The notes below the pieces were generated by a model. The model ran no database searches and was not told the origin of the DNA. It was given only the letters and a program-made list of their open reading frames with translations. A DNA stretch of 64,000 bases. Origin: Candidatus Woesearchaeota archaeon. Its GTDB lineage: Archaea; Nanobdellota; Nanobdellia; Pacearchaeales; GW2011-AR1. The stretch covers positions 19,669 to 83,668 of the forward strand of contig CAZHOH010000001.1 of assembly GCA_964534185.1 (NCBI GenBank), written 5' to 3'. Positions 887-48,992 of the stretch are shown here, one piece after another (the first letter of the stretch is position 1; every line of letters starts with the position of its first letter). A program made the translations under genes and the position numbers.

Positions 887-2461
887 CTAGGTCTCGAACT
901 CGACAAGGTAACGCAAAACGTTCTGGTCTTCTTGATAAACGATCCACTCGTTGTTCATCACATGGCTGTAATTCGCCTTGCCAAACACGCTGTGGCAACC
1001 CCCCGGGGGGGAGGTATACCCGCGCGGGCCTGGAGCCAGGAAGGGTTTCCCGAGGACGACGTCGCCGAGGAACATGAAGGCCTTGCGGCCTCGCACTGCG
1101 CCGCGCCCTCCGGACCAGAACGAGTTCTGTAGGCTACAGTATCCCGCGGCCTTCTTCCAGTCGTCGGCCCAGTACGTTCCAGGTCCGAACATGGCTCCTG
1201 TGATGGCTACGCCCACCAGCTTCTTCGGCATCATCAGGCTCTTGGACAAGATTCCGCTGACATTGACGGAGCGGGTGCCGTGGAACAGCAGGGCGGTTCT
1301 GGAGTCCCTATGGGCCGAGAGCGTCCCGTTCAGGTCGGGTCGCGAGCGAGGCGAGAACATAGGCTTCTCCCGGGAACTGGGCTTCTGCGCGGCAATCTGC
1401 GCCTGCTTGGCGTCGAACCGATGGCGGCAGGTCGGCTTGTTCGCCTCCCAGATGTTATGGACCTTCATTTGCCCAAGTCCCCTGTGGAGGTTTCGCGTCG
1501 CCCGGGGCAGGAAGTCCATGATCCACTTGCCTTCCCCCCGGGGGTCAAGCCAGCGCATCTCGAGGTCTATCCCATCCAGGGGATTGCGGGTCATGTCGTC
1601 GATGTCCTCGAGGCTGGTGGACAAGGCTTGCTCGAACGCGTCAAGGTCCTGTTGCCATGTCAGGATGTTCTTTTGCGACAGAACCCACGTGGACTCGTCC
1701 GCGCCGACGGGCTTGACCTTCGGGATGCGCGAGTAGAGCAGCCGACTGAATTCTCTCAGCCGCTTGTCCTTGACCTGACGGTCAGGGTCGTCGCCTACTT
1801 TCGACAGCCGCTTCAGGGCCTCCGTGAGGATGTGCCTACCTTCGTTGATGGCATCCTGGGTAGGGATGCTGTCGTCCGCCATCGAGTTGCGCGTGTAGTT
1901 GGCGGTCGCTACGTTTAGGTCGTGCATCAACTGCATGACCTTCGGATCCGGCAGGGAGTCCGCGCGCCTCGCCTTGCTCGACTTCTTGGTTTTCTTGGCG
2001 GGAGCGTCTCCCGTCTGAATCTTCTTCGCCCCGGGCAATCCGGTCGACCTGGTTGCCTGCGGGCGGACGAGGTAGCAGTCCTTGCCCTTTTTTGCCCGCA
2101 GGGCCTGTATCCCGGAGATCTTCGTCCATTCTCCGCGCTTGTCATTCTTGCTGTGCAGTTGCTTCTCGTATGCCTTCCGCGCCTCGTCCTCGCACATGGC
2201 CATGACGAACTGGAAGTCCGGACGGGAAGCGCCGGTGCGGCCCCACTCGAAATAGGCGTACCATTCCCCCGTCTGCTTGGATCTGACGACGGCCCCGTGG
2301 TAGAACTTGTTGGTGTCCCGTCCGTCCTGGGTGAAACATCCCAGGTCAGCGACCCCAGTGTCCTCGAACTCCCCATCCTTGACCGCAGGAGGGCCAAAGC
2401 ACTCGAAGTCATCGGGGCCATGGCAAGCAGGAAACTGACGTTTTGGTAGTTTGGTAGCCAT
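887..2461 (-). CDS. poly(ADP-ribose) polymerase-like protein (WGR domain + PARP catalytic domain)
   Basis: 524-aa ORF starting at ATG 2461. WGR motif GEWYAYFEWGRTGAS near the N-terminus. C-terminal PARP fold with an intact H-Y-E triad (LLFHGTRS, GPGTYWADD, NNEWIVYQ). Confidence 0.8.
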   Translation of the reverse strand: MATKLPKRQFPACHGPDDFECFGPPAVKDGEFEDTGVADLGCFTQDGRDTNKFYHGAVVRSKQTGEWYAYFEWGRTGASRPDFQFVMAMCEDEARKAYEKQLHSKNDKRGEWTKISGIQALRAKKGKDCYLVRPQATRSTGLPGAKKIQTGDAPAKKTKKSSKARRADSLPDPKVMQLMHDLNVATANYTRNSMADDSIPTQDAINEGRHILTEALKRLSKVGDDPDRQVKDKRLREFSRLLYSRIPKVKPVGADESTWVLSQKNILTWQQDLDAFEQALSTSLEDIDDMTRNPLDGIDLEMRWLDPRGEGKWIMDFLPRATRNLHRGLGQMKVHNIWEANKPTCRHRFDAKQAQIAAQKPSSREKPMFSPRSRPDLNGTLSAHRDSRTALLFHGTRSVNVSGILSKSLMMPKKLVGVAITGAMFGPGTYWADDWKKAAGYCSLQNSFWSGGRGAVRGRKAFMFLGDVVLGKPFLAPGPRGYTSPPGGCHSVFGKANYSHVMNNEWIVYQEDQNVLRYLVEFET

Positions 2462-2485
2462 TTCTTTCGTCTTCTTTTCCCAGGG

Positions 2486-7769: not shown

Positions 7770-9614
7770 TCACTTCAAACTCAGGACGCCAACCTCCTGG
7801 CGCCCGGTGACGTACACGCCATTCTTCCCAGCGAAGAGATGGCAACCTTCATTCACGAACGGCTCCGTGTCGGGGAACTCCTTTTCCACCTCCAGTAAGC
7901 CGCCGTTGTTCCTGATCCGCCTCAAGCCCTCGTCAGAGGCGCTTAGCAGCATCTTGTCAAACGCCCACTTTCCCCTGATTCCGGATAGCCAGGGATGGTC
8001 GGCCTGGTCGGTCTGCTCCGTCGCCAGAACCTCGCCGTGGCGACTGACCACGTGGCATTCGTTGACCTTCCTCTTGCCCTGCTGCGTGCTCACGAAGAAC
8101 CAGCAGCAATGATCCCCGAAAAAGCAGGTCGAGTCTATCAGTTGGCCGCGAACCTTGACGTTGACGGAGTCGTTGATCTTTCCGTTGACGTCGAATACGA
8201 AGGCCACGCTCAACTGGCCGGCGCGATAGAAGCCCAGGCCGAACTCCGGGCCCACCCAGAAGAGGGTCTGGTTCCTCAGCACGTCGCCTATCCTCTTGTA
8301 TCCCAGTATATCATCACGATAGAGTACACCGTCCTGCAACCAGAACTTATCGCGCCCGTTGGCGTCGAATATGGGCAGGTTGCCGTAGAAGTCGACCGGC
8401 AACTGCTCCAACTTGCCATCCTTGTCCACGACCAGCGCCGGCTTCCCGGACATGCCAATGAGAGTCTGATTCCCGCAGATGCGAAAGCGCATCTGGTGAT
8501 GCGCGGACCCCTTGAGGACCTTTACTCCCCCTTCTCTCCAAAAATGTCCGTCTTCCCAATAGAGCCACCTCATCTGGCCATCCTGCATGGCGGCGAACAG
8601 GATGGTTCCCTTCGTGGAGAATATCTTCTTGTATTCCACGTTGCCCTTGACGACCTCCTTAACGAGCGGAACGACCTTCTGGCACTCCGGGCAGGACTTT
8701 CTCGCGTGCTCGAAGCCGCAGCCCGGGCAGACGCGCCACTGCGTGTTCAGCAACTGCAGCGGGAACGGACCCCGCGTGTCCTTCTCGAACACCTGGCGTA
8801 AGTAGTCCGCCAGGTCGTCCGGCAGGGACTTGAGGGGCCGCGCGGGCTTCGGGTACTTGACCTCCGAGTCAAATACCGTGATCCGGTGCAGGGGCCGCGC
8901 CGGGTGGGGCACCTTGCGCTTCTTGTCCTTGGGACGAAAAACCCCCCCGTATGGGTCAACGAACATCAGGGTCTGCATGACCATGACCGCGAAGGCGTAC
9001 CAGTCGGAGTCCTCGTTGTGGGGCCTGACCAGGACGGGCCTGTTCTGGCGCGCGTCGCACAGCAGGGGATCCACGAATCGCTCCGTGTAGACACGGCAGG
9101 GAAACGTCCTGAACTGCCAACTGTCAGCGTCGATGACGTAGGGCGTATCGCCTTTGACGAGGACGTTGAGGTCGTTGAAGTCACCAACCACCGCGTCCTT
9201 CTCGTGGATCGCCTCGACCACCTGGGCCAGTTTCTTCAGAATCCTGTTGACGACATTGTTGTTGACGCCATGCCGGAAGGACTTCTCTCCATAGCGGAGC
9301 AGAGGCTCTGCCCCCTCGACCATGTCCATCACGTAGCCAACGATCTTTCCTTTCCTGTCGGTCGCAACGTCCAGCGGGACGATGACGTTCGACGGCACCC
9401 CCCGGGGGAACTGGGTCAACTTCTGCTGGTGCTCCTCTATGCGAATCCTCGCGGCCTGGCGCTGGTCGACGGTCAGGTGGTCGGGATGGTTCTCTCCCTT
9501 GAAGACTTTGAGCGCGTGACCACCGGGGATCCGGTAGACGTCAGCTTCGCCGCCTTTGCCTATGCTATCGGTAGGAGCAACGCTTATGCGCTTGCTTCTG
9601 ACGTAGACTTGCAT
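7770..9614 (-). CDS. Ser/Thr protein kinase with Zn-ribbon and a repeat-rich C-terminal domain
   Basis: Motifs IGKGGEADVYRI...ALKVFK (Gly-loop and Lys), VVGDFNDLNVLV (catalytic loop) and VIDADSW (DFG-equivalent). These are followed by CPGCGFEHARKSCPEC and about 280 aa of beta-rich sequence. Confidence 0.75.
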   Translation of the reverse strand: MQVYVRSKRISVAPTDSIGKGGEADVYRIPGGHALKVFKGENHPDHLTVDQRQAARIRIEEHQQKLTQFPRGVPSNVIVPLDVATDRKGKIVGYVMDMVEGAEPLLRYGEKSFRHGVNNNVVNRILKKLAQVVEAIHEKDAVVGDFNDLNVLVKGDTPYVIDADSWQFRTFPCRVYTERFVDPLLCDARQNRPVLVRPHNEDSDWYAFAVMVMQTLMFVDPYGGVFRPKDKKRKVPHPARPLHRITVFDSEVKYPKPARPLKSLPDDLADYLRQVFEKDTRGPFPLQLLNTQWRVCPGCGFEHARKSCPECQKVVPLVKEVVKGNVEYKKIFSTKGTILFAAMQDGQMRWLYWEDGHFWREGGVKVLKGSAHHQMRFRICGNQTLIGMSGKPALVVDKDGKLEQLPVDFYGNLPIFDANGRDKFWLQDGVLYRDDILGYKRIGDVLRNQTLFWVGPEFGLGFYRAGQLSVAFVFDVNGKINDSVNVKVRGQLIDSTCFFGDHCCWFFVSTQQGKRKVNECHVVSRHGEVLATEQTDQADHPWLSGIRGKWAFDKMLLSASDEGLRRIRNNGGLLEVEKEFPDTEPFVNEGCHLFAGKNGVYVTGRQEVGVLSLK

Positions 9615-10504: not shown

Positions 10505-11506
10505 CTAAATGAACTCTACCCCCCGGGGGGACAGGCGAACGCGCCTTATCTTGATCGTCTCGCTCTCGTCAAGTTGCTCTTGCCAAGCATCCCGGGATAG
10601 GTCGATGGTTCTTTTGTCCTCGAAGAGGGCAGGCCCCGAAACCAACTCCAGAGGCACGTCTCCGATGAAGGCCCCCCAGGCCTCCAGCGGCTCGCTCTCC
10701 TCCATTAGTTGGAGCGCGCGGCGGAAGGCTGGCATCAGGCGGGCAATGTAAAACGCCCGGTGAACACCATGTTCGCTGTCGTCCGCAATCATATCCTGCC
10801 AACACACGTCCAGCGTATGTTTGTGTATGCGCAAGAGACAGTCATCCAGCTCTCCCTTGGGCAGGACAGCCGGGGTTGCAACGTTCTCCTGTTCCCGGAG
10901 AACCTTCCACTCCTTGATGATGCGGACGATGGGGTCGCTCGGGGGCTGCTTCTCAAGGTCTTCCTCCATCCACCCTTCATGCGTTGTGGCAAGGTGGTAG
11001 AACTCCTCCATGCTGCAGACGTCACATTCGGACGACTGACGGAGCGCGTCGAACAAGATGTCTCGCATGCGGCTGACGTTGGCGCAGCAGGCGGGCAGGA
11101 TCTTGCTCTCGCATCCGCAAATATCGACCCATGTTATGGCGGCAAGTTGGATGCTGACGGCCCTGAGTTGGCCCTCAAAGTCATGGTCATATATCGGTTT
11201 CAATACGGATTCGTGACGGCTCTCATCTACCTTCAATGCGACGCGCGCATCCATGTTGCGCATGGCCTCGTCGGTTTTGCGCTGCGCGGCCTGGACAGCC
11301 TGGTCTCCCATCTCCTCTACGGTGCGCCGCCCCTTGAAGGTCGCCCGGATCTCGTAGGTCACCCGAACCGCCTCGGCATAGCCGTGGTCCATCAGCCACT
11401 TCAGATCCTCCCACTCGGGATGGCTGCGCTCGGCATTTAACTGCTGCTCGTGAACCAGCCTCCGCAGGGTCGACAGACGTTGCTTCTTCTTCTCAACCAT
11501 GGACAT
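10505..11506 (-). CDS. hypothetical protein (333 aa)
   Basis: ATG at 11506 with AGGAGAA upstream. No motif recognised. Confidence 0.6.
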   Translation of the reverse strand: MSMVEKKKQRLSTLRRLVHEQQLNAERSHPEWEDLKWLMDHGYAEAVRVTYEIRATFKGRRTVEEMGDQAVQAAQRKTDEAMRNMDARVALKVDESRHESVLKPIYDHDFEGQLRAVSIQLAAITWVDICGCESKILPACCANVSRMRDILFDALRQSSECDVCSMEEFYHLATTHEGWMEEDLEKQPPSDPIVRIIKEWKVLREQENVATPAVLPKGELDDCLLRIHKHTLDVCWQDMIADDSEHGVHRAFYIARLMPAFRRALQLMEESEPLEAWGAFIGDVPLELVSGPALFEDKRTIDLSRDAWQEQLDESETIKIRRVRLSPRGVEFI

Positions 11507-13970: not shown

Positions 13971-13997
13971 ATGATTGAAAGAAAAAGGAGGATGACC

Positions 13998-14873: not shown

Positions 14874-14874
14874 C

Positions 14875-18122: not shown

Positions 18123-19112
18123 TCAATCGTCGATGCGGCTCAATAGGTCTGATTTGAGCGCGTCGGGCAATGCCTTCAAAATAAGCAGCCATTCCTCTGT
18201 GTTTTTGACGGGATGAAGAGTGAATATCTCGTTGGCCCTTGAAATGGCTTGATTTGCGACCCCGGGGCCTACGCGACCCTCAGCCACGTCGTAATGGAGC
18301 CTTTTCTCGTCCTCGTAATAGCAGACTCTCTCGGATAAAGGTTTGGTTTTTCGAGCCTCAAATCTAGCCTTTCTCAGATATATACCGAAGAACAACTCGC
18401 TGCTAGTAATCGTATTGTCACGCATGACGAGAGGGAATGTGTTGCCTGGGATCTCATTCAGGACGAGAGATACAGCCCTGCGTGATAGCCACCAGAAATG
18501 GCCCTGAAGAGAATGCAGGCAACCTATGTTAGGAACGTCTCTATGGTTCCTCTGCCATTGCTCCGATGCATTGTCGTACCTCTTTCTGATCAGTTTGGGC
18601 AGGTAGCGCACCAGTAAGCCTGACACGTCATACGGGGCAGCATCATGGCGCAAGATCAGGGTGTCCGGGTCTACGACGGCCAGAAAATCCGAGTCGCCCT
18701 GATTGATGAATTTACGAAAAATGTCCCTGTACGAGGAGAAGAGGTGATGCCTGTTGTCTCCGGCAAAGACGCTCAGCGGTAGTCCTACGTCGGGCAGTTT
18801 CCTTTCGCGACGCTGGCATATCCATACATTACCAACGTTTTGAAAGGCGGTAACGGCGAGCCTGAGGCATCTGTGGATGACCTCGTCCGGCTCGTCATAG
18901 ACCAAAGCAGCCACGTCTATCTTCATTTTTCTTCTAGGGGCGCCTCCCGTCGCAAGCACCGAACCGATCCCCTCGACCTCAACCTGCTTGGCCTTGGCCT
19001 TGGCCTTGGCCTTGGCTTTGGCCGGAGGATTGAGCGAGAAGCCCCAGCACCTCTCAGATCCGTAGGAGCAACCTCGTCCCCCGGGGGACGAGGTTTTTCT
19101 TTGTCGAGCCAT
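18123..19112 (-). CDS. leader-bearing protein, possible GT-A glycosyltransferase
   Basis: Starts with the shared leader MARQRKTSSPGGRGCSYGSERCWGFSLNPPA, then (AK)n. The body carries FLAVVDPDT (DxD-like). The functional assignment is weak. Confidence 0.6.
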   Translation of the reverse strand: MARQRKTSSPGGRGCSYGSERCWGFSLNPPAKAKAKAKAKAKQVEVEGIGSVLATGGAPRRKMKIDVAALVYDEPDEVIHRCLRLAVTAFQNVGNVWICQRRERKLPDVGLPLSVFAGDNRHHLFSSYRDIFRKFINQGDSDFLAVVDPDTLILRHDAAPYDVSGLLVRYLPKLIRKRYDNASEQWQRNHRDVPNIGCLHSLQGHFWWLSRRAVSLVLNEIPGNTFPLVMRDNTITSSELFFGIYLRKARFEARKTKPLSERVCYYEDEKRLHYDVAEGRVGPGVANQAISRANEIFTLHPVKNTEEWLLILKALPDALKSDLLSRIDD

Positions 19113-19159
19113 GTTGCCTCCTACCAGCCTGTTGGGATGCCGAGAGAAAAATCCCTTCC
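19021..19159 (-). repeat. conserved 5' UTR + leader cassette, copy A
   Basis: Covers about 45 nt upstream of the ATG (including GGTAGGAGGCAAC) plus about 31 codons. It contains the 26-nt perfect palindrome 19070-19095. A few mismatches separate it from copies B and C. Confidence 0.9.
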
Positions 19160-19203: not shown

Positions 19204-20346
19204 ATGAACATCGTATCGCTGTTTACGGGAGCCATGGGGCTAGATCTGGGGCTAGAGGCCGCGGGCTTCCAGGCCGAGGTATGCGCCGACACCGACCGGT
19301 TCTGCCGCGAGACCATCGCCGCCAACAAGCCAGAGTCCAGGATCCTCGATGACGTCGCCAAGGTAACGATAGACACGGCGCCGCGAAACCCCTGCATAGT
19401 GGCAGGGGGGCCTCCCTGCCAGTCATGGTCGACGGCCGGCAGGCGCAAGGGGTTCGACGACCCCCGGGGGGAACAAGTCCTAGAGTTTGGGCGGGTGGTT
19501 GCCGACTTGCGGCCCCGCTTTTTCGTGATGGAGAACGTGCGCGGACTCACCTCCATGCTGACCGGCGACAACCGCTTGGCCATAAACGTCATAGAGGAAG
19601 AGTTCGAGTCCATCGGCTACAAGGTGGTCCGCGGCGTGCTGAACGCGGTCGACTATGGAACCCCACAGTTTCGGGACAGACTCATCATGATCGGATCCCG
19701 CGACGGCGAAGACATCTTCCTGCCATTGCCCACGCACTTCCAGAAACACCAGGAAGAAAGCATGAGGTGGGTGACTCTTGGCAAAGCCCTCCAGGGCATA
19801 GCCATAGATTCCCCGGGGGACTTCCAGGAATTCTCGCCCCGGCGCAAATCATGGCTGGAGAAGATCCCCCCGGGGGGGAATTGGAAGAGCCTGTCGGAGC
19901 AAGACCAGAGGAAGGCCATGGGAGAGGCCTACAACTCTGGGGGAGGCAAGACAGGCTTCTTCCGCCGGTTGTCCTACGACGAGCCCTCCCCGACGCTGGT
20001 GACCTCGCCGACGCAGAAATCCACGATTTTGTGCCACCCGGAGAAAACCCGCCCCCTAAGCACGCTGGAATACGCGCGGATACAGGACTTCCCCCGGGGG
20101 TGGAGCATACGGGGGAACACAACGGAAGTCTACAGGCAGATAGGGAACGCCGTCCCCGTCAGGCTTGGGCGCGCAATCGGGCAGGCGTTGCTCTCGACCA
20201 TGAGCAAAAGCCACGTGGTAAAGGCCTCCCGCGTGCGCAAAGACGCCAGCGAGGAAGAAAGGACGCCAGTCCGCCCGCGCAAGAGAGCGGAGGAAGAAGA
20301 GCTCACCAAAGCAGGCATGGAGGCCTGGGGGATGCAAGATGTTTGA
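19204..20346 (+). CDS. dcm: DNA (cytosine-5)-methyltransferase
   Basis: Trimmed to ATG 19204 (MNIVSLFTGAMGLDLGLE, motif I). Also GGPPCQSWS (motif IV), FVMENVRGL (VI), QFRDRLIMIG (VIII) and GNAVPV (X). Confidence 0.9.
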   Translation: MNIVSLFTGAMGLDLGLEAAGFQAEVCADTDRFCRETIAANKPESRILDDVAKVTIDTAPRNPCIVAGGPPCQSWSTAGRRKGFDDPRGEQVLEFGRVVADLRPRFFVMENVRGLTSMLTGDNRLAINVIEEEFESIGYKVVRGVLNAVDYGTPQFRDRLIMIGSRDGEDIFLPLPTHFQKHQEESMRWVTLGKALQGIAIDSPGDFQEFSPRRKSWLEKIPPGGNWKSLSEQDQRKAMGEAYNSGGGKTGFFRRLSYDEPSPTLVTSPTQKSTILCHPEKTRPLSTLEYARIQDFPRGWSIRGNTTEVYRQIGNAVPVRLGRAIGQALLSTMSKSHVVKASRVRKDASEEERTPVRPRKRAEEEELTKAGMEAWGMQDV

Positions 20347-21124: not shown

Positions 21125-21163
21125 TGTTAAAACGAGCCCCCTCCACGTCCCCCCGGGGCGCCA

Positions 21164-21327
21164 GGGAAGGAATTTTTCTCTCGGCATCCCAACAGGCTGG
21201 TAGGAGGCAACATGGCTCGACAAAGAAAAACCTCGTCCCCCGGGGGACGAGGTTGTTCCTACGGATCCAAGAGGTGCTGGGGCTTCTCGCTCAATCCTCC
21301 GGCCGCGGCCCCACGTCAGGCCAAGGT
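21164..21327 (+). repeat. conserved 5' UTR + leader cassette, copy B
   Basis: No mismatch noted by eye against copy C (reverse complement) over about 160 nt. It contains the palindrome 21229-21254. Confidence 0.9.
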
Positions 21328-33596: not shown

Positions 33597-35531
33597 CTAA
33601 AGCATCGCCTCGAACTCGTTCATTCCTATGATCTGTACGCCCAACTCGCGGGCCTTCTGAGCCTTGCTTTTCGTGCTGGACGTATCCTTGAGGACGAGGT
33701 AACTGAGTCCCTTGCTCACGCTCTTCTTTTCCTTGCCTCCCGCCGCTTCCAGACGTTGCCTCTGATCAGGATCCATTCGTACCCCAGAGAAGCAGAAGGT
33801 CTTCCCGTACAACTTGCCGTCGGACACCTCCTTCTTGAGCGGGGTCACCTTGATTATCCTGACCAGCCTCTCTATTAGATCCTTGCGGGACTGGATCGAC
33901 TCTGTAACCTCCTTGGCCGGCTCCTCGCCGAACGTTCCCTTCTCGCTGAATGGCTTTCCGACGAGATCCTTGGGTGCGAGGCCAAGATATTCCTCGACGG
34001 TATCGATGCCGATAAGGCGAGCGCGAGACCTGCCGAGCATCTTGATGGACAGCGATCCCATGAACATGTCGATCGGGAGTTCTCGCGTCTTGTCAATCTC
34101 TGACACGATCTTCTTGGCGTTGCTGCCGATGACCCCGTTGCCCACCGGGCACTTCGACACGCTGGCCTCGTCGAGCGAGTAAAGGTCATCTATGTCCTTG
34201 ACCAGACTCGCCTCGACCAGGGACCTGAGCGCCGTGGAGCCAAGTTGCTTGATGTCTAGCTTGTCAACCCAGTTCCTGATCCTCTGGAAGTAGAGGTCTG
34301 GGCAGGTGGGGTCGGTCACCAGCAGGCGCTTGCCCTCCCAGGACAGGTCGTATTCCTTGCCATCGGAGGCCTTCCATGCCCCCGGGGGAGGAAAGGGGCC
34401 GGCCGTGTTCTTCTTGGCCACCCTCGTTATGTGCGGGATGATGTCCCCTCCCTTCTCCACCTCGACGACGTCTCCGACGTTGATGTTCTTCTCGCTGACG
34501 TACTTGAAGTTGTTCAGCAAGCAGTGCGTAACGGTCGTCCCCGCTAGCCTCACAGGCTCGAACACGGCGGTGGGTATGATCGCCCCCGTTTGGCCGATGG
34601 TAAGCTCTATCGAGAGGATCTTGGACTCGGCCTTCTCCGTCTCGAACTTCCAAGCCACCTGCCCCCGGGGGCGGCTCCCCCCGTCGCTGTACCCCATGGA
34701 TTCCTGCTTCTCGAGGTCCTCGACCGCGACGACCATGCCGTCGATCTCGAACTCGAGTTCGACGCGGGAGTCCTCGTATCGCTTGCGGCACTTGACGAGG
34801 TCGTCCCAGGTCCGGCAACGGAACCACCGGATCGTCTCGAAGCCCATGGACTCGAGCGCCTTGAACTTGTGGCTCTGCTTCTTGAACGCAACCTCGGGGT
34901 GAACCAGGTCGAACGCCCGGAACGTGATGTGCTTGTTCGCGCTGGGGTCGCTCTTCGCCACGATGACGCCGTTGCCGCCGTTGCGGGGGTTTTCCTTGTC
35001 TGGGAGATGCTCCCTCCACGCGCTGACGGACAACTGGGCCTCACCCCGGACGATGACCTGAGCCTTGACGTCGATCTTCTCCGGCAACCCCTCCCACATG
35101 CGGGCGTTGCGGGTGATGTCCATGCCGATCTTGCCGTCGCCGCGGGTGGCAACGCGCCAGAGGCTGCCCCCGCGATAGACCGCCTCGGCGCTGGAGCCGT
35201 CAGCCTTGTCCGACACGATGACCTCGGGCTTGCCGGCCTTCTCGAACCATGCCAGGATGCCGGCCTCGTCCTTGGCCTTGTTCTGGCTTCCCATGTGCAT
35301 CAGAAGCCTGACCTCGTCCCGATGCCCGGAGACAGGGGCGCCGACCTCGCTGAAGAACGAGTGCCCCGGGGCCGCGCGCCGGAGCTCGTCGCGAAGCGCG
35401 TCGAACTCCGCGTCGGTCATCAGGGTCATGCCCGTATTGTAATAGGCCTCGCTGGCCGCCCTCAAGTCGGCAGCGATCTCGTCAGGGGACCTCCTGTCGC
35501 CTGGCCCAAAGTTGATTGCTGGATCTTTCAT
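33597..35531 (-). CDS. ligA: NAD-dependent DNA ligase
   Basis: YYNTGMTLMTDAEFDAL (domain Ia), adenylation Lys in SDKADGSS, OB motif GGDIIPHI, HhH region, and a C-terminal BRCT (GKTFCFSGVR). Start trimmed to ATG 35531. Confidence 0.85.
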   Translation of the reverse strand: MKDPAINFGPGDRRSPDEIAADLRAASEAYYNTGMTLMTDAEFDALRDELRRAAPGHSFFSEVGAPVSGHRDEVRLLMHMGSQNKAKDEAGILAWFEKAGKPEVIVSDKADGSSAEAVYRGGSLWRVATRGDGKIGMDITRNARMWEGLPEKIDVKAQVIVRGEAQLSVSAWREHLPDKENPRNGGNGVIVAKSDPSANKHITFRAFDLVHPEVAFKKQSHKFKALESMGFETIRWFRCRTWDDLVKCRKRYEDSRVELEFEIDGMVVAVEDLEKQESMGYSDGGSRPRGQVAWKFETEKAESKILSIELTIGQTGAIIPTAVFEPVRLAGTTVTHCLLNNFKYVSEKNINVGDVVEVEKGGDIIPHITRVAKKNTAGPFPPPGAWKASDGKEYDLSWEGKRLLVTDPTCPDLYFQRIRNWVDKLDIKQLGSTALRSLVEASLVKDIDDLYSLDEASVSKCPVGNGVIGSNAKKIVSEIDKTRELPIDMFMGSLSIKMLGRSRARLIGIDTVEEYLGLAPKDLVGKPFSEKGTFGEEPAKEVTESIQSRKDLIERLVRIIKVTPLKKEVSDGKLYGKTFCFSGVRMDPDQRQRLEAAGGKEKKSVSKGLSYLVLKDTSSTKSKAQKARELGVQIIGMNEFEAML

Positions 35532-36679: not shown

Positions 36680-36868
36680 CTACAACTGAATGCCCCGCTG
36701 CGCTTCCCAATCAGCTAGTTCCACGCGTTCTCGCTCAGCTCGTTCAAGGATATGGCGAGCAATTTGAAGGGCTTCTGCCCGGGAGATCGGGCGTCCAATC
36801 AAATGTTCAAACTGCTGACCGTCAATATGCACCTTGCCAGTTCCGTCTTGGTCAGTTGCTCCCATCAT
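36680..36868 (-). CDS. small hypothetical protein (62 aa)
   Basis: Tail of ORF 36680..37366, taken from MMGATDQ. It fills the gap between the Thg1-like and AAA genes. Confidence 0.3.
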   Translation of the reverse strand: MMGATDQDGTGKVHIDGQQFEHLIGRPISRAEALQIARHILERAERERVELADWEAQRGIQL

Positions 36869-37730: not shown

Positions 37731-37803
37731 TTCCTGCTTCAATCCACCCCGGGGGAAACCTTACTTCGGAAGCCATTTTACCATCCCCCGGGGGCACGGC
37801 AAA

Positions 37804-38976: not shown

Positions 38977-41070
38977 TCACCACGTGGCGGCCAATCGAAA
39001 GGATAACACTCCGAAAGCGCACGCAGCAGCAACTGGGACGACGCCATTTCCCAGCAGGCGTAGCTGGTCTGTTCGACGCTCGTGGTCGAGTCTGTCCATC
39101 CCGGAGGCCACCCCATCAGCCATTCTACAAAGAGCGGGTTCAAGAAGCGGCTCGGCTTCAAGGACTTGCTCCCATTCCCTGAAGTCCCCTGGCCCCGGGG
39201 GCGCGAGGGGGAGGATTGTTCCAGATGGGCCTCGAAAACCTGCGACCACACCTTTGCCAGCGTCTCGACATGAACCTGATGGCTGCCGCTCTCCGACTGC
39301 CCCTTCCGAAGAACCTGCTCGACGCTCATAGCCCTGCCCCCGTTGGGCACGTTCGGCGTTGGCCAGAGACAGTTCCACACGTCGCTCCACATTTTCGCTA
39401 CGACCTGGAGGCTCGTCGGAGTCTTCCGGGGGCCTCCCTTCATGCGCCGCTTCATCGCCATGTGGGCCCCAGGGGTCTTGTTGTCGTCGTTCGCCACCGC
39501 CGTTGGCCACAGCGGCCCATTCTGCCGCCCGGAGGATGGCCTCTTCTCCCGGTCTCGCGCCGGCGATGAAGAGACGCTTTCGGACATGGCACAGTCCGAC
39601 TTCCGCCGCCGAGAATAGTCCTGCTTCAACGTCGTAGCCCAGGCCTTGTAGGTCTCTGGCGACCTCGTCGAAGCCGACGTTAACGTGGTTGGGTACGTTC
39701 TCGAAAAAGAGGACGCGGGGTTCTGCCTCCTGGACGATCCTCCTGACGCTGGGCCAGAGGTGGCGGGGATCCTCCTTGCCCTTGATTCTCCCGGCACAGG
39801 AGAACGGCTGGCAGTTGTGGACGACAGTTCCGTCTGCCACGTAAGACTCATCGTCTCGGACTGCGATGTTATAGACTGTGTCCTTGCCAACAGGGGCGTT
39901 TGAGCTGACGCGCTTCCATCCAAGACCTTGGTCGACGAAGGATGCACGATTGCGATCAGGGATGGACACGATCCATGACGGCCTTTGTCTGACGAGTCTG
40001 CCTTCGATGACCTTATCTTTTGCGCTTTGGCAGCATCGAACGGCAGCAATGACCCCAAATGCTCGCTGAGAGAGCAGAGCGACACTGAGAGCAAGGGCCT
40101 TGCTCGCGGACTGAACTCGACGAAATCCCCCCTTTCCAACAGGGTTCTTATGTGCTCCTCCGTCTCCAGACAAGCATCCCTCAAGCAAGGCCCTGGCCTT
40201 TCCCTCTCCGAGGGAAAGGTACTTTCCGGGGATACGCTTGCCGCGGGCATGTCGTCCGAATTGCTGCAAGAACTTGAAGAAACATGTTCTTGTAATGGCG
40301 AATCTGGTTGTTGTTCGCTCCTCGCTCCTGTAGGCGCTAAGCCCTGCTTCTTGTATTCGCCTTTCAAGTTCGTCTGCCTCTGGTCTGTTGCAACAGATGT
40401 TGACACGACCATTTCTGTGGGAAGGAGATTTTTGGAGCCAACCGTCAGCCAAGTACCTCCCGACGAGCCACCAGAATTCTTTTGATCGTTTGTCTGGGCG
40501 CACTGGAGGGAGAGCCTGAGCCACCCAATGCGCTCCGGTGAGTTCCTTTGCCTGCACCCAATCAGGGGAACCAAAAGATCGCTGTCTTCCCTTTTGTTTG
40601 CACCTAGCGAAGAAGGGGTGCTCTTCTGTGCATCTGATTCCCGGGGTTCCTTGCGCCTTGATTTCCCTGATTGGGGCACCGTCCTTGCGCATGACCGCTG
40701 TGACTGGCTTCCATCTGGCTCGGTGGGTAAGGACCAGATCTCCAACTCGAACGTCTTCGATGGGGACATATCCTCGCTTGCATAAGACGAGGGTTCCTGA
40801 GACGAAGCACGGGTACCCTCCAGTGACGCAATCCACGACGCCACGCCATCTTCTGCCGTCGAAGGTCTTGGCATCCGTCCAAATAGGCGCGTCGTCCAGC
40901 CGCCCTTCTTCCATGCGTGATGCCAGTACTTCGATGGCATATCCTTCCCTCTCCACGTAGCAGACGACGCGAGAGCCTCCGACCGCCATTCGGAGTCCGA
41001 GCTCGAGTCCGCCGCCGCCGGAGCAGAGAGACAGAACGTTGAAGGTACGTATGCCCACATCTTTGTTCAT
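38977..41070 (-). CDS. dcm: DNA (cytosine-5)-methyltransferase interrupted by an intein
   Basis: Exteins: VLSLCSGGGGLELGL (motif I), GGYP|...|CQPFSCAG (IV, split), LFFENVPNHV (VI), HVRKRLFIAG (VIII) and LLGNGVVP (X). The spliced product would be about 365 aa. Confidence 0.85.
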   Translation of the reverse strand: MNKDVGIRTFNVLSLCSGGGGLELGLRMAVGGSRVVCYVEREGYAIEVLASRMEEGRLDDAPIWTDAKTFDGRRWRGVVDCVTGGYPCFVSGTLVLCKRGYVPIEDVRVGDLVLTHRARWKPVTAVMRKDGAPIREIKAQGTPGIRCTEEHPFFARCKQKGRQRSFGSPDWVQAKELTGAHWVAQALPPVRPDKRSKEFWWLVGRYLADGWLQKSPSHRNGRVNICCNRPEADELERRIQEAGLSAYRSEERTTTRFAITRTCFFKFLQQFGRHARGKRIPGKYLSLGEGKARALLEGCLSGDGGAHKNPVGKGGFRRVQSASKALALSVALLSQRAFGVIAAVRCCQSAKDKVIEGRLVRQRPSWIVSIPDRNRASFVDQGLGWKRVSSNAPVGKDTVYNIAVRDDESYVADGTVVHNCQPFSCAGRIKGKEDPRHLWPSVRRIVQEAEPRVLFFENVPNHVNVGFDEVARDLQGLGYDVEAGLFSAAEVGLCHVRKRLFIAGARPGEEAILRAAEWAAVANGGGERRQQDPWGPHGDEAAHEGRPPEDSDEPPGRSENVERRVELSLANAERAQRGQGYERRAGSSEGAVGERQPSGSCRDAGKGVVAGFRGPSGTILPLAPPGPGDFREWEQVLEAEPLLEPALCRMADGVASGMDRLDHERRTDQLRLLGNGVVPVAAACAFGVLSFRLAATW
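39814..40809 (-). mobile_element. intein (332 aa) with LAGLIDADG homing-endonuclease domain
   Basis: Starts CFVSGTLVL (Cys1). Block B is CTEEHPF. LAGLIDADG-like motifs LVGRYLADGWL and LLEGCLSGDGG. Ends VVHN, followed by a +1 Cys. Confidence 0.8.
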
Positions 41071-41097: not shown

Positions 41098-42120
41098 CTA
41101 CGGGGCCAGCCTCCTTTTGATTTCCTCGCGGACAAACACGCGCGTCGCGTCCAGTTTTTCCTGGAGAGTCATCTTATCCCGCTCCTTTCCCCAGTAGAGA
41201 ACGCTCACGTCGGGCCTGTCATGGAGCGGAAGCCATCCTGGCACGTATAGTCCCCAGAACTCGTCTACCGAGATCGCCGGCATACCAAAGGAAGGGGCAA
41301 GAAAGCCCCCGCCTCCCATGCTTAATGTAAACTCCGCCCCGCTCATTACCTCTAGCTGTCTCTGCAGGTACTCGGTTCGAACCGGCTTCTTCAGTGTCTC
41401 CAGAAACATAGTCTCGTTGCCAATCCTGTTACGGTCTACCCGATCCAGCCGATCTAGGCCCGTGTGTGGGGCCCAACCAACCCCGATGACTTCGTAGCCG
41501 TAGTGGTTGACCAACTCCTTTAATTCCAGCCATTCTAGGAAAGGCAGGCTCCTGCCTCCCGCCGTGCCACCAAACTCGTCTCCTTTCAGCCACCTTTCGG
41601 ACAAGCAGGGTATGAAGCACACGTACTTGCGAGGATCCTTCTTGACCCAGGACCAGTCCATCTTCGCATTGACCAGTTCCCTCGGGAAGTCCCTCCGCAT
41701 CTTGGAAAATAACTTCAGAACGGCGCTCTTTCCCGTCCCCTCCTTGGCCGGGAAATGATATGAATCGCTGAACTGGCTCCAAACCTCTTCCTTCAGGTCG
41801 TCAAGCCACTCGGAATGTATATTGACCTCGTCTCCGAGCCACCGCTTCAACAGGAAAGCTGGCCATATGCGGGTGACGCATACCTCGCCGAACTCACCGC
41901 CGTGAATGATGTTCCTAAGATCCAGATCTATCTTCTCCCTGGGACGGCGCAGAGGGGAGGCCTCAACCTCCTCCTCAACCTTGGCCTCAACCTCCTCCTC
42001 CTCAACCTTGGCCTGACGTGGGGCCGCGGCCGGAGGATTGAGCGAGAAGCCCCAGCACCTCTTGGATCCGTAGGAACAACCTCGTCCCCCGGGGGACGAG
42101 GTTTTTCTTTGTCGAGCCAT
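41098..42120 (-). CDS. leader-bearing GT9-like (GT-B) glycosyltransferase-like protein
   Basis: Trimmed to ATG 42120 (AGGAGG upstream). Shared leader MARQRKTSSPGGRGCSYGSKRCWGFSLNPPAAAPRQAKV, then an E/V/K/A repeat. MGGGGFLAPSFGMPAISV near the C-terminus. Confidence 0.6.
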   Translation of the reverse strand: MARQRKTSSPGGRGCSYGSKRCWGFSLNPPAAAPRQAKVEEEEVEAKVEEEVEASPLRRPREKIDLDLRNIIHGGEFGEVCVTRIWPAFLLKRWLGDEVNIHSEWLDDLKEEVWSQFSDSYHFPAKEGTGKSAVLKLFSKMRRDFPRELVNAKMDWSWVKKDPRKYVCFIPCLSERWLKGDEFGGTAGGRSLPFLEWLELKELVNHYGYEVIGVGWAPHTGLDRLDRVDRNRIGNETMFLETLKKPVRTEYLQRQLEVMSGAEFTLSMGGGGFLAPSFGMPAISVDEFWGLYVPGWLPLHDRPDVSVLYWGKERDKMTLQEKLDATRVFVREEIKRRLAP

Positions 42121-42168
42121 GTTGCCTCCTACCAGCCTGTTGGGATGCCGAGAGAAAAATTCCTTCCC
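42005..42168 (-). repeat. conserved 5' UTR + leader cassette, copy C
   Basis: Reverse complement matches copy B over about 160 nt. It contains the palindrome 42078-42103. Confidence 0.9.
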
Positions 42169-42372
42169 CCGGGGGGCGCGGGAGGGCGTCCATGGCATCG
42201 CCGAGGAGGCCAAGCCCTATGCGCTCCTGTTGGCAGTGACGCGAGACTCGGGTGCGTCGGCATTCGTCAACCTAGTTCAGGATCGGTATGACCTTCACGT
42301 ACCCGCGACGAGAGGGCCACAGCATGCACCATCCAAACATGATAGCCTCTGGCCTGTCGTACGAGATCTCGG

Positions 42373-44493: not shown

Positions 44494-44557
44494 TTCTCAA
44501 TCATCTCCCGGTCAAAACCATGGCCAACGATGCCATCGCCACTTGGCGGCAGCCAAT

Positions 44558-46458: not shown

Positions 46459-47820
46459 CTACTCGCGCTTGAAATCGAGGTTGATCTTGTAGTTCCACGT
46501 CTTGCCGTGCTCCGGGTGCACCCCGAAAACGGACTGGGTTGGCCGCGACGCCTTGCGGAGCTGGTGCATCGAGTAGATGTCTCCCCCCACGAAACTGCCG
46601 TTGACCATGATCTCGCCGCGCGTCGTCTGCAGGTCGCTGAAGGAGTGAAAGTGCCCGAGGCAAAGGTAGTCGAAGGGCTTTCGCGTCGCTCCCGACACCA
46701 GGTTCTGCAGGCTCAGCTCCTCCTTGTAGATGGAGTTGATGTTCTGGGAGATGTAGTCGCCGTGAACAAGCAGGAACTCCCAGTCGTTGATGGTCTTCGT
46801 TTGCCACCATGCCTGTGAATAGTTGACGTTGATGTTCGGCCTGTTCTGCAGGAGGGCCTGCAGTAACTTGTACGATATGAGGTCCCAGTTGGCCGACACC
46901 TTGTCGGAGCTCTTCGAGACCCCCGCGCGCCCATGGTTGCCAAGAACTCCGTCGAACTCGACCCGCTCGAAGTAGGCGCTCCAGGCGTCCAGCATCTCGG
47001 AGACCACCTGCGCGGCCATGATGGCCTGCTGAGTGATGTCTAGCGTCGTGTAGGCCGGCCCCCACTCCCCCGCGAGGTTGGCCCCCTGGACAAAGTCGCC
47101 CAGGCCCATAACGTGCAGCACGGGCACCTGCCTGACCTCGCTGTGCAGGGACAGTATCTCGAGCACGGCGCTGCGAAGGTTGCTGGCCCTCTCCTTGAAC
47201 ACCTCGACGTCGTAGCCGCCGAGGCCACCCGTGTCCTGCGGGGAGAACTCCTGTCCCACGTGCAGGTCGGACAGCATGAGCACCATGTGCTCGTCGGAAT
47301 GCTTCTTATTTTTCGCCCTGTTGAGCGTCAGCTTTGGCAGGGCCTGGCGGGGCAGCGGGGTGGCGCTCCGCTCGATCGCCTCCTGGAGTTCGCGCAGGAA
47401 GGCCTTGTTGCTGACTTCCTTTCTCCGCACCTTGACGACATTCTTCGCGGCCTCCCTGTCCCGGACCGACTCGGCCTCCAGGTGCAGGACGTCGTCGTAG
47501 GTCATGTCGCACAACTCGGCCAGCACCTCGGCGAACCTATCCCAGTCGACGCTATTGACCTTCCTCGTGATCGTGGAGCGCTCGTAGCCGAGGGCGTCGG
47601 CCATCGCGGCATGGGACAGCTTGGAATTACTGGACACCAGCTCGTATAGGGCGACCATCTTTGGGGCGTCCCACGCGGCTGTCACGCCGGGCAGGCACGA
47701 GAACCGCAGCGGATCCTCCCCGTGCTTCTCCATGAACGCACTGACGGCGTCCACCCTCCGAGTTGACTTTCTCTTCGCCAGCCTCTTCCGAATGGCGTCG
47801 GCACGATCCTTCCTGTTCAT
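46459..47820 (-). CDS. calcineurin-like metallophosphoesterase with N-terminal HTH-like region
   Basis: MLSDLHVG, GLGDFVQG, GNHGR, VHGDY and LGHFHS. Start trimmed to ATG 47820. Confidence 0.65.
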   Translation of the reverse strand: MNRKDRADAIRKRLAKRKSTRRVDAVSAFMEKHGEDPLRFSCLPGVTAAWDAPKMVALYELVSSNSKLSHAAMADALGYERSTITRKVNSVDWDRFAEVLAELCDMTYDDVLHLEAESVRDREAAKNVVKVRRKEVSNKAFLRELQEAIERSATPLPRQALPKLTLNRAKNKKHSDEHMVLMLSDLHVGQEFSPQDTGGLGGYDVEVFKERASNLRSAVLEILSLHSEVRQVPVLHVMGLGDFVQGANLAGEWGPAYTTLDITQQAIMAAQVVSEMLDAWSAYFERVEFDGVLGNHGRAGVSKSSDKVSANWDLISYKLLQALLQNRPNINVNYSQAWWQTKTINDWEFLLVHGDYISQNINSIYKEELSLQNLVSGATRKPFDYLCLGHFHSFSDLQTTRGEIMVNGSFVGGDIYSMHQLRKASRPTQSVFGVHPEHGKTWNYKINLDFKRE

Positions 47821-48992
47821 TAAGATCTCCCTGGCAGGACTGATACGGGTAAAACGTCGCTCGCCCGGAACCATAAGTCTCGCCGAGCCTCGTCAAGGGG
47901 CAGGCTCTCGTCCAAGCCTCCCACTTTTTCCAGCACTGTTCTCCTCGCGACGAAACTATCGGGCGCGCCAGCGGCGAATATGTGGCCGGGGCCCTCCAGT
48001 GCCTTTAGTTGGGCCGCCAGCCGACGCGGTTCCTGCCTGTCGGCCAGCCAGACGTACTTGGTACGGGTCATCAAGAGGCCCAGGTTGAAGGCTCCCGTGT
48101 TGGATGCCCCCGGGGGTGGGACTACGGCCCTGACTCCCTCTGGCGCCGGCCCGTCGGATACGAGTGTGACCTCGAAGTCATGAAGGCCGCTTCCGCTCAG
48201 TTCCCTTGTGACCTTGGACAAGTCGTTCATACTGCCTATTATTACGATTCCCAATGTTGGGACCCGAAATTTGTCCACGTATTGGGAGGACAAGGAAAAT
48301 TCCCCGGCCTCCCCCATCTTCCTGAGGCGCGCCTCCACGACGTCCCTTAGCATGCAGGCCATGGAGTACGAGAACGGGCTGCCGCTTCCGCGCGAGGGCC
48401 CGCCTCCCCTATGGATGACGTTTGTCACGGCGTCGGCTTTGCCCGGCGCTCCGCACGCGATGTACATGCGCCCCCAGAAGTCCCAGTCCTCCATTTTTTG
48501 CAGGCTTTCGTCCCATCCCCCTACGAGCTCGAACGCCTTTCTCGTGTGGATGAACGATGAGACGGGCGCGATGTTCTGCGACAGGAGCGCGTCGGGGTCG
48601 TAATAGCGCTTCGGCCCGGGGTTGTTTGGCTCGGGGTCGGTGGTCTCGAAGCCGTCGGCATAGCGGAACAACGCCCGGGAGAAGGAGAACTCGTGGCTCC
48701 CTATGGCGCGGAGTTGTTCTCCCACGTAGTTCGGCAGCAGCTCGTCGTCGTCGTCGAGATAGCAGATGTAGTCCGCGGAAGACATCTTGACGCCGAAGTT
48801 GCGGGCGTAGGCAGGGCCCCTTCCCCCGGGGGTGGACAGGAGCCTGGTTCCAGGAACAGGATTCGGGGCACGGGGACCGTCGTTGACGACAATAATATCC
48901 ATCACCTTGACTGTTTGGTTCAATGCGGATTTGACAGCACGCCCAAGCAAATCCGGCCTGCTGTATGTCGGGATTATAATGGCTATATTCAT
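47820..48992 (-). CDS. family 2 glycosyltransferase (possibly two-domain)
   Basis: Trimmed to ATG 48992. MNIAIIIPTYSRPDLLGRAVKSALNQT, then YLDDDDELLPNY. Confidence 0.75.
   Translation of the reverse strand: MNIAIIIPTYSRPDLLGRAVKSALNQTVKVMDIIVVNDGPRAPNPVPGTRLLSTPGGRGPAYARNFGVKMSSADYICYLDDDDELLPNYVGEQLRAIGSHEFSFSRALFRYADGFETTDPEPNNPGPKRYYDPDALLSQNIAPVSSFIHTRKAFELVGGWDESLQKMEDWDFWGRMYIACGAPGKADAVTNVIHRGGGPSRGSGSPFSYSMACMLRDVVEARLRKMGEAGEFSLSSQYVDKFRVPTLGIVIIGSMNDLSKVTRELSGSGLHDFEVTLVSDGPAPEGVRAVVPPPGASNTGAFNLGLLMTRTKYVWLADRQEPRRLAAQLKALEGPGHIFAAGAPDSFVARRTVLEKVGGLDESLPLDEARRDLWFRASDVLPVSVLPGRS

Follow-up and report, generated by a model that had tools for sequence, protein, structure and literature searches.

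The stretch analysed here (the window) covers 64 kb of a contig whose length is at least 107.7 kb, with a GC content of 0.561 overall and 0.58 in 1-49 kb. It carries 17 full sites of CCCCCGGGGG, a short, GC-rich, self-complementary perfect palindrome of 10 bases whose C and G runs reach from C5G5 up to C6G7. An exact search recovers every one of the 17 sites that the original prediction had reported, and both of the C5 cytosine methyltransferases that it had named are real, the match of methyltransferase 1 covering the catalytic half only. These enzymes and the leader cassettes of the window are located as follows.

19204..20346, plus strand: C5 cytosine methyltransferase 1, holding three full sites and one C4G5
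20339..21124, plus strand: orphan ORF of 261 aa that overlaps the methyltransferase 1 stop
38977..41070, minus strand: C5 cytosine methyltransferase 2, whose PCQ motif is interrupted at the catalytic Cys by an intein
19020..19159, minus strand: leader cassette copy A, comprising a 5' UTR, a GGAGG ribosome-binding site, ATG and an N-terminal tag
21127..21381, plus strand: leader cassette copy B, repeat core 21164-21332
42000..42168, minus strand: leader cassette copy C, which matches copy B at 99% identity and lies directly upstream of methyltransferase 2

The full sites and one near-copy are listed below, together with the peptide encoded at the site (numbers prefixed L denote relatives).

999..1011: C6G7 site in the PARP/WGR gene (887-2461, minus), PPGG
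1534..1544: C6G5 site in the PARP/WGR gene, DPRG
9398..9408: C6G5 site in gene 7770-9614 (minus), FPRG
10519..10530: C6G6 site in gene 10505-11506 (minus), close to its 3' end, SPRG
19078..19087: C5G5 at the centre of a 26-nt perfect palindrome, AACCTCGTCCCCCGGGGGACGAGGTT, in cassette copy A, where it encodes SPGG at codons 9-12 of gene 18123-19112 (minus)
19461..19471: C5G6 site in methyltransferase 1, family-invariant DPRG motif; kept in L006
19866..19878: C6G7 site in methyltransferase 1 (IPPGGNW); CCCTCCCGGGGG in L006 and L008
20091..20100: C5G5 site in methyltransferase 1, FPRGW (derived); counterpart C5G4 in L006 and C4G3 in L007/L008
21237..21246: C5G5 in the middle of the 26-nt palindrome in cassette copy B, where gene 21212-23593 (plus) starts
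23166..23175: C5G5 site in the glycosyltransferase/radical-SAM gene 21212-23593, SPGG
34379..34388: C5G5 site in the gene for NAD-dependent DNA ligase, PPGA; kept in L001
34662..34671: C5G5 site in the same ligase gene, RPRG (conserved in the family); retained in L001
37746..37754: C4G5 near-copy, intergenic, its first base 39 nt ahead of the 37785 site, shortly upstream of where the Thg1-like gene starts
37785..37794: C5G5, intergenic between genes 37804-38310 (minus) and 36852-37742 (Thg1-like, minus)
42086..42095: C5G5 in the middle of the 26-nt palindrome in cassette copy C, where gene 41098-42123 (minus) starts
42166..42176: C5G6 (plus strand; C6G5 as read on the gene strand), 43 nt ahead of the conserved cassette C ATG at 42123; the equivalent in copy B is C6G4 at 21149-21158
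48107..48116: C5G5 site in gene 47820-48992 (minus; family-2 glycosyltransferase), PPGA
48823..48832: C5G5 site in the same family-2 glycosyltransferase gene, TPGG

Three of the sites (19078, 21237 and 42086) sit in a leader cassette of 140-169 nt that has been copied before three genes, a duplication with a hairpin that the original prediction did not mention. The copies have in common the N-terminal tag MARQRKTSSPGGRGCSYGSKRCWGFSLNPPA followed by a Lys/Ala-rich repeat. The entire 255-nt copy B block is missing from L007, where the downstream gene begins at a TAATG overlap. Since the three sites copy one repeat, the number of independent sites is ~15.

CCCCCGGGGG ranks first among the over-represented 10-mers of the window. 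The earlier assumption that C and G are each near 0.3 was fair, and the expectation of well below one site agrees with Markov models of orders 0-4 (0.19, 0.20, 0.09, 0.28 and 0.57), with 1.9 expected at order 5. Models of orders 7 and 8 yield the observed count, a circular result since the sites themselves belong to their training data. When synonymous codons are permuted inside each of 68 genes, with proteins and per-gene codon counts fixed, the mean falls to 1.78 (sd 0.87, maximum 7 in 1000) against 17 observed, and the excess therefore stands under the codon-aware null that had been called for, amounting to ~10 to 100 times over chance or codon usage. The reverse palindrome GGGGGCCCCC (G5C5) occurs 0 times in the window and GGGGCCCC once, and CCCCGGGG is found 30 times versus ~3 expected. 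The near-copies noted previously are likewise present (CCCCGGGGG and CCCCCGGGG, 22 each, 10 falling outside full sites). Spacing is mildly clustered rather than regular (P = 0.044 over the 49 kb of motif-bearing sequence), and, as described before for the AT-richer block, 49-64 kb holds no full site. GGWCC, AGCT and CAGCTG are depleted in the same DNA, so the contrast with palindrome avoidance holds.

With respect to reading frame, the sites are mixed, as the original prediction had claimed, the three frame offsets holding 4, 5 and 7 sites in the peptide test, where 42166 is counted as coding, or 4/5/6 coding plus 2 non-coding when 42166 and 37785 are both set as non-coding. Among the intergenic copies placed in 37743-37803, the full site at 37785 is truly intergenic and that at 37746 is the C4G5 near-copy. 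Peptide positions that permit the motif number ~19, and CCCCCGGGGG fills 15-16 of them versus 0.56 expected. The permissive peptides are themselves 3.4-fold in excess (19 versus 5.6 +/- 2.4 expected, with no higher number in any of 500 residue shuffles), and in 14 of 16 coding near-misses the full motif could be reached only by replacing an amino acid. One-nucleotide deviations are biased to the outer positions, with 9 versus 1.2 expected at positions 1/10, 8 versus 3.3 at positions 2-4 and 0 versus 0.56 at the centre. In places the amino acids have shifted towards the motif, the ligase having PPGA at 34379 where other relatives have PPKD, PPKE or APTH, and methyltransferase 1 having FPRGW where other family members have FPDxW. 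The sites in both genes align with homologues codon-for-codon and without gaps, and are therefore not insertions. The signal acts at the DNA level and not via codon or amino-acid usage; the proposal of selection or a mutational process on the DNA survives the codon shuffle, the permissive-peptide test and the near-miss analysis.

Two further relatives frame this result. The diverged relative L153 carries a sister motif, CTCCCCGGGGAG, with 12 copies of CCCCGGGG in 21 kb versus 1.1 (Markov) and 2.5 (codon shuffle) expected, spread over all frames and intergenic DNA. L156, with a GC content of 0.57 and homologues of both methyltransferases, has 1 of 16 permissive positions filled versus 0.68 expected, and serves as a same-GC negative control lacking enrichment.

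We conclude that the DNA itself is under a directional pressure peculiar to this phage lineage. The pressure has driven nearly all protein-tolerated positions towards CCCCCGGGGG, choosing codons and in places changing amino acids, and purifying selection on proteins halts it elsewhere, leaving one-off near-misses. The recognised unit is the CpG-centred CCCCGGGG core with lineage-specific flanks (C...G here, CT...AG in L153). The explanation that we favour, at somewhat less than even chances, is that CCCCCGGGGG is a highly iterated palindrome (HIP-like) of a large, GC-rich, uncultured phage under this lineage-specific pressure, possibly coupled to methylation. The agent would be an enzyme or binding system that acts on DNA as a dimer and in a sequence-specific way, with its gene in the phage or the host, and near-motif sequences would be converted to the motif faster than the motif decays. 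The preferred version borrows from the model put forward for HIP1 of cyanobacteria and its variants: the embedded CCGG/CCCGGG would be methylated at cytosine-5, and this methylation would be coupled to a repair or nicking bias.

This coupling to methylation is possible and is partly contradicted by our data. CCGG is not avoided here, and related phages (L237, L002 and L159) avoid it strongly. All 7 of 7 between-lineage differences inside motif positions are C/T or G/A transitions, which carries little weight given a background fraction of ~0.6 and partly shared changes in L006 and L008. The deamination products are not depleted, either as CCTGGG/CCCAGG (47 versus 45-51 expected) or as CCCTGGGG/CCCCAGGG (4 versus 2.9-3.6 expected). 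No Vsr- or MutH-like gene was recognised in the 64-kb window, the ORF adjoining methyltransferase 1 having no vsr match; this orphan ORF (20339-21124) has no Pfam, NCBIfam or PDB match either, and its structure model is uninformative (pLDDT 32). Across 80 other loci with methyltransferase 1 homologues, CCCCGGGG is not enriched (7 versus 9.7 expected). L156 argues that the two methyltransferase families are insufficient for the enrichment, and L156 and these loci together show as much for the methyltransferase 1 family.

The best-placed alternative, which we nevertheless consider rather unlikely, is that CCCCCGGGGG is the binding site of a dimeric phage DNA-binding protein (e.g., a nucleoid, packaging or global regulatory protein), kept by functional selection and not by repair bias. 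A perfect palindrome of 10-12 bp with lineage-specific flanks is typical of homodimer sites, and non-coding copies pair around gene starts: 37746/37785 before the Thg1-like gene, and 42166/42086 flanking the start of cassette C. The intergenic copy of L153 likewise sits between divergent genes, and Xu et al. argue for selection in HIP1 (PMC5861425). However, the near-complete filling of permissive positions and the bent protein sequences are unlike ordinary operators, the spacing is not regular, and no candidate binding protein was identified. In orthologous comparisons with independent assemblies of close relatives, 3 of 6 sites are kept versus 1.5 expected, too few to separate selection from drive.

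An action at the RNA level, through hairpins, terminators, RNase or ribosome signals, appears very improbable. It would suit the three cassette copies, where CCCCCGGGGG stands at the top of a hairpin (-24.9 kcal/mol, z = -3.3) followed by a T-rich tract; these are the best terminator-like matches in 17-25 kb, and the hairpin reads as a putative intrinsic terminator on the strand antisense to the tagged genes. The other 14 sites, in contrast, have arms of only 5-6 bp and no T-tract, lie mid-gene in three frames and both gene orientations, and are not terminator-like; there is no Rfam family match. Spread by a small mobile or duplicating (MITE/REP-like) element deserves hardly any credence: three copies do lie within the 140-169 nt repeat, an insertion relative to L007, but this origin is refuted for 14 of 17 sites, which have no common flanks beyond the decamer and align to homologues without gaps. 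A by-product of composition, of Pro/Gly/Arg codon bias or of assembly, for which only the circular order-7 and order-8 models speak, is the least credible reading of all; it runs against the zero count of G5C5 and is refuted by the codon shuffle, the L156 control and the occurrence of sites in independent SRA assemblies of close relatives, which shows that they are not an assembly artefact.

Returning to the HIP-like reading, a stronger form of it, which we put forward as doubtful, is that this clade of large phages has its own sequence-specific genome-rewriting system, driving a 10-12 bp CpG-centred palindrome into every tolerated position and altering proteins. The specificity of the system would have shifted between lineages (C-CCCCGGGG-G versus CT-CCCCGGGG-AG), and at least one relative would lack the system. 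Were this true, the search for the HIP machinery could turn to a compact genome of ~100 kb that offers few candidate genes. The motif-bearing phage, the sister lineage with the same core and altered flanks, and the same-GC relative without the motif form a small natural comparison set, in which any gene that both motif-bearing lineages share and the third lacks is a candidate for the agent. Palindrome avoidance does not shape every phage genome, as avoidance of GGWCC and AGCT coexists here with extreme enrichment, and annotation and modelling of these phages should allow for motif-distorted protein sequences and codon usage.

Among known systems, DNA uptake sequences, Chi and KOPS are over-represented bacterial oligomers that are non-palindromic, strand-oriented and host-owned. 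CCCCCGGGGG is like them an abundant short word inside genes that shapes codon and peptide usage, but has none of those three properties. The cassette copies are built like intrinsic (rho-independent) terminators, their GC-rich stem of 11 bp being capped by a CCGG loop and followed by a T-rich tail, but they account for only 3 of 17 sites, and the hairpins are antisense to their host genes. In Escherichia coli, Dcm/Vsr very-short-patch repair leaves CCWGG enriched and CTWGG/CCWAG depleted. Such a methylation-coupled repair bias that raises the frequency of a methylase target is the kind of drive proposed here; however, the effect is modest in E. coli and the excess here is far larger, deamination products are not depleted and no Vsr-like gene was found.

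The existence of highly iterated palindromes in cyanobacteria was recognised about thirty years ago. Like CCCCCGGGGG, they are short GC-rich palindromes in 10- to 100-fold excess over composition and codon-aware nulls, present in all three frames and in non-coding DNA, with palindromic flank extensions that vary by lineage and in genomes encoding C5 methyltransferases. One-off variants gather at the outer positions, as they do for HIP1 (PMC4390886). HIP1 is GCGATCGC, with the alternate palindromes GGCGCC, RCCGGY, GCSGC and GGGATCCC (Elhai 2015, PMC4390886; Xu et al. 2018, PMC5861425); a periodic distribution on the kilobase scale is ascribed to such palindromes (Xu et al. 2018, PMC5861425), and their cause is disputed between a repair-driven by-product and selection for chromosome structure (PMC4390886, PMC5861425). 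The methyltransferases here are only candidate cognates, one relative having both families without the motif. The carrier here is a phage and not a cellular chromosome, and the sequence is a 10-mer, a C4G4 core extended to C5G5, rather than an 8-mer. CCCCCGGGGG resembles the unexplained HIPs of cyanobacteria, although its carrier is a virus and its sequence is new.

An exact search returned 17 copies of the C5G5 palindromic decamer CCCCCGGGGG in the window, with run lengths from C5G5 to C6G7, matching every site and coordinate of the original prediction. All 17 lie within 1-49 kb, where GC content is ~0.58, and the motif is indeed absent from the AT-richer 49-62 kb block (0 full sites, GC 0.47). 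Over the whole window, Markov models of orders 0 to 4 predict 0.19, 0.20, 0.09, 0.28 and 0.57 copies, and order 5 predicts 1.9; only orders 7-8, both trained on the sites themselves, come near the observed count. CCCCCGGGGG is the most over-represented 10-mer of the window, with its own overlaps as the runners-up. The opposite palindrome GGGGGCCCCC has 0 copies and GGGGCCCC has 1, indicating that the excess is not explained by a generic G/C-run or hairpin-forming property. The C4G4 core CCCCGGGG is found 30 times versus ~3 expected, and bare CCCGGG outside these sites shows no enrichment in the window (36 versus ~30). When synonymous codons were shuffled per gene in 68 genes (called in this analysis), with protein sequences and per-gene codon counts kept, a mean of 1.78 copies remained (sd 0.87, maximum of 7 in 1000 shuffles), one of which is a fixed intergenic copy. 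The count is therefore not accounted for by codon or amino acid bias, and the proposed DNA-level signal survives the codon-aware null that had been named as its check. We consider the excess itself a solid observation.

The 64 kb seen here belong to a contig listed at 107.7 kb or more, and the relatives compared are loci of 1.3-22 kb. The underlying samples are SRR21542050 and JGI 3300041085. The window is gene-dense (~90% in ORFs) and appears to be a section of a large phage, with identified genes encoding a sigma-70 family factor, a Pnkp/RNA-ligase fusion, an NAD-dependent DNA ligase, a PARP-catalytic/WGR protein, a Thg1-like enzyme, an Mre11-like exonuclease, RNase H, peptide deformylase, RlaP, radical-SAM enzymes and several glycosyltransferases. 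No structural genes or tRNAs were found in the 64-kb window, megablast of 24 kb gave no nucleotide match to phage and plasmid collections, and homologues of its proteins come from metagenome assemblies only. The PARP-catalytic/WGR protein (887-2461, minus strand, 524 aa) is unusual in a phage and has a weaker homologue in the related locus L004. The stretch 49579-63099 is a glycan and sugar-nucleotide island (GC 0.47) encoding UDP-GlcNAc 2-epimerase, FkbM methyltransferase, GNAT, GT2, Polysacc_synt_2 dehydratase and GT6, all on the minus strand; C5G5 is absent from this island, which shows the same GGWCC and AGCT depletion as the rest of the window. Several repeats are also present. A 74-nt direct repeat (32675-32748 and 33214-33287, 96% identical) copies the ribosome-binding site and first 12 codons (MARRFFYDTEFI) of an RNase H-like gene to a position just downstream of that gene. 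GCCTTG/GGCCTT hexamer repeats (18979-19035 and 38354-38386) give several proteins, peptide deformylase among them, Lys/Ala-rich tails that resemble histone H1-like DNA-binding tails, with a similar tail in the relative L153 (11215-11904). A 32-nt inverted repeat (13956-13987 and 44488-44519, 84% complementary), in which CCCGGGAG is found, sits immediately 5' of both the sigma-factor gene and gene 44059-44493 and may be a shared upstream element. Finally, a 34-nt direct repeat (15454-15487 and 15707-15740, 94% identical) ending in CCCCTTTTTTCCGG is located in the 15.1-15.8 kb stretch, where ORFs are only weak. Both of the C5 cytosine methyltransferases that had been claimed were found; they are listed here with their neighboring ORF and the copies of a repeated leader cassette.

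Methyltransferases, neighboring ORF and leader cassettes of the window
19020-19159, minus strand: leader cassette copy A
19204-20346: MTase1, C5 cytosine methyltransferase
20339-21124, plus strand: orphan ORF of 261 aa, overlapping the MTase1 stop codon
21164-21332, plus strand: leader cassette copy B (repeat); 255-nt block at 21127-21381
38977-41070, minus strand: MTase2, C5 cytosine methyltransferase with intein
42000-42168, minus strand: leader cassette copy C, just upstream of MTase2

Genes in 1-49 kb contain ~19 permissive positions, at which a peptide (PPG[GAVDE], [STPA]PGG or xPRG) can encode the motif through synonymous codons alone, and 15-16 of these are filled by the decamer, where the codon usage of these genes predicts 0.56. 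The permissive peptides are themselves enriched in 1-49 kb (19 versus 5.6 +/- 2.4, with none of 500 within-protein residue shuffles reaching 19), compared with 1 versus 1.2 expected in 49-64 kb. In homologue alignments, some sites are hosted by conserved residues (ligase RPRG, MTase1 DPRG) and others by residues changed in this lineage, with the ligase having PPGA where relatives have PPKD or PPKE, and MTase1 having FPRGW where relatives have FPDxW. The alignments have no gaps at the sites, indicating that the sites are not insertions, and dispersal by a mobile element of the REP or MITE kind was rejected for the bulk of them on this ground. Coding DNA of 1-49 kb contains 16 one-off variants; turning them into the full motif would alter an amino acid in 14 cases and be synonymous in 2. 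By position, one-off variants fall at the two outer positions 9 times (1.2 expected), at positions 2-4 8 times (3.3 expected) and at the center 0 times (0.56 expected). Permissive filling, peptide enrichment, changed residues, near-misses and outer-position bias together indicate a persistent DNA pressure towards the motif that is checked only by protein constraint. This pressure is directional and lineage specific, acts at the DNA level, as the original prediction of selection or a mutational process on the DNA itself had proposed, and has sufficient strength to determine codon choice and change protein sequences.

Three of the sites (19078, 21237 and 42086) form the center of one 26-nt perfect palindrome, AACCTCGTCCCCCGGGGGACGAGGTT, within the leader cassette, a 140-169 nt repeat with copies 97-99% identical, so that ~15 of the 17 sites are independent, which is still far above every null. 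The cassette gives three unrelated genes a 5' UTR, a GGAGG ribosome-binding site, a start codon and a shared N-terminal tag of ~58 aa (MARQRKTSSPGGRGCSYGSKRCWGFSLNPPA, then a Lys/Ala-rich repeat). The related locus L007 is without the entire 255-nt block 21127-21381, and its orthologous gene begins at a TAATG overlap with the preceding ORF, indicating that the cassette was acquired and is a duplicating module. Copies A and B, inverted relative to each other, flank MTase1 and its neighbor ORF, and copies B and C have an extra C6G4 or C6G5 ~45-55 nt upstream of the ATG. The palindrome has a folding energy of -24.9 kcal/mol (z = -3.3). Read antisense to the tagged genes, it precedes TTTTTCTTT, and copies A and B give the top terminator-like matches in a scan of 17-25 kb (copy C lies outside this interval). 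It had 0 matches in viral contigs. Recombination may have spread the cassette as a tag for protein targeting or DNA binding. An RNA-level function was rejected for the bulk of sites, and an Rfam search returned no family.

MTase1 and MTase2 have only the catalytic motifs in common, and PDB matches to MTase1 cover its catalytic half only. The MTase2 intein (~330 aa) interrupts the PCQ motif immediately before its catalytic Cys (GGYP/C...HN/CQPFS). The ORF overlapping the end of MTase1 has one orthologue only, with its position kept in L006, L007 and L008; it had no family or PDB match, its AlphaFold model has a pLDDT of 32, and it is unrelated to the ORFs that follow the MTase1 homologues of L153 and L156. 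This ORF could encode a nuclease partner of MTase1.

Among close relatives, both ligase sites are kept in L001 (ligase, 90.5% nucleotide identity), and one of three sites is kept in L006 (MTase1, 80.6% nucleotide identity), with the other two each one transition away; the three MTase positions covered in L007 and L008 are degraded versions. The recurrence of sites in independent SRA assemblies (L001, L006) rules out the assembly artefact that had been named as a possible refutation. Differences at motif positions among close relatives are transitions in 7 of 7 cases, which is weak evidence given a background fraction of ~0.6, and 3 of 6 orthologous sites are conserved versus 1.5 expected, a sample too small to discriminate between the models.

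More distantly, L153/L154, originating from a 122-kb JGI contig (GC 0.53), has seven genes in common with the window at 23-58% amino acid identity, including an MTase1 homologue. In 21 kb, L153 has 12 CCCCGGGG sites versus 1.1 (Markov) and 2.5 (codon shuffle, maximum of 6 in 500) expected, using all three frames and with one site between divergent genes, and no C5G5 at all. Its flanks favor T at -1 (14/24 half-sites) and C at -2 (16/24), giving CTCCCCGGGGAG, compared with C at -1 in 40/56 half-sites in the window; the pressure thus acts on a CpG-centered C4G4 core with lineage-specific flanks. Permissive CCCCGGGG positions are filled 25 times versus 3.3 expected in the window and 11 versus 0.96 in L153. 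The negative control is L156, from a 35-kb contig (GC 0.57) with Pnkp 58% and Thg1 49% identical and homologues of both methyltransferases, in which CCCCGGGG fills 1 of 16 permissive positions versus 0.68 expected. A compositional artefact was rejected for the bulk of sites on the basis of the codon shuffle and of this same-GC relative without enrichment. No motif sites were found in the AT-rich relatives L002-L005, and 80 further metagenome loci with MTase1 homologues (707 kb) contain 7 CCCCGGGG versus 9.7 expected. CCGG is strongly avoided in the related or MTase1-bearing contigs L237 (1-21035, from a 250-kb contig; 6 versus 48-100), L002 (1 versus 4-11) and L159 (0 versus 14, with GGCC at 1 versus 13), whereas it is not avoided in the window (283 versus 254-356) and has a normal count in L153. 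Restriction-site-like avoidance of other words (GGWCC 69 versus 133, AGCT 80 versus 127, CAGCTG 0 versus 6) coexists with the palindrome excess in window 1-49200. A scan of viral contigs for paired C5G5 sites yielded 24 loci, several of them tandem arrays; none had scattered sites or was related to the window. Among the matches listed for such pairs in GTDB genomes, we observed high-GC actinobacteria with no more than chance predicts, spurious poly-G/C assembly sequence and tandem arrays, and no host clue.

The responsible agent appears to recognize a palindrome of 10-12 bp and may therefore be a dimeric protein. We tentatively favor a methylation-coupled repair bias, as proposed for cyanobacterial highly iterated palindromes (HIPs; PMC4390886), which would drive sequences towards the motif. 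This model is favored by the CCGG/CCCGGG embedded in the motif, by the two C5 methyltransferases that the phage encodes, by the lack of CCGG avoidance in the phage although its relatives avoid this word, and by near-total permissive filling with clustered rather than regular spacing. Against it, L156 and the 80 loci show that having these methyltransferase families is not enough, a search of the genes recognized no repair nuclease, and the deamination products of the motif are not depleted. The main rival, that selection maintains the motif as the binding site of a dimeric phage protein, would account for the pairing of non-coding copies around gene starts; we regard it as possible but the less probable reading, and near-total filling with clustered spacing looks more like opportunistic drive than selection for site number or spacing. 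The comparison set of the window, L153 and L156 makes the mechanism testable.

With respect to known systems, a VSP signature was rejected, with no VSP-like depletion and no vsr gene, and so was a DUS- or Chi-type word, since these are non-palindromic and strand-oriented and CCCCCGGGGG is palindromic. In the literature, the decamer appears only in primers and unrelated constructs, and searches for HIP1 in cyanophages or over-represented palindromes in phages gave nothing relevant; we found no description of this word or of a phage-borne HIP-like element in the literature covered, which is incomplete. The closest known kind is the HIP, comprising HIP1 (GCGATCGC) and alternates of it (PMC4390886, PMC5861425). 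HIP1 shows no enrichment in the window (1 copy), and the window motif differs from HIPs in being phage-borne and in its sequence and length. Like HIPs, CCCCCGGGGG is a palindrome with an excess of comparable size, is present in all frames and in non-coding DNA, has variants biased to the outer positions, and shows palindromic extensions specific to lineage, as seen between the window and L153.
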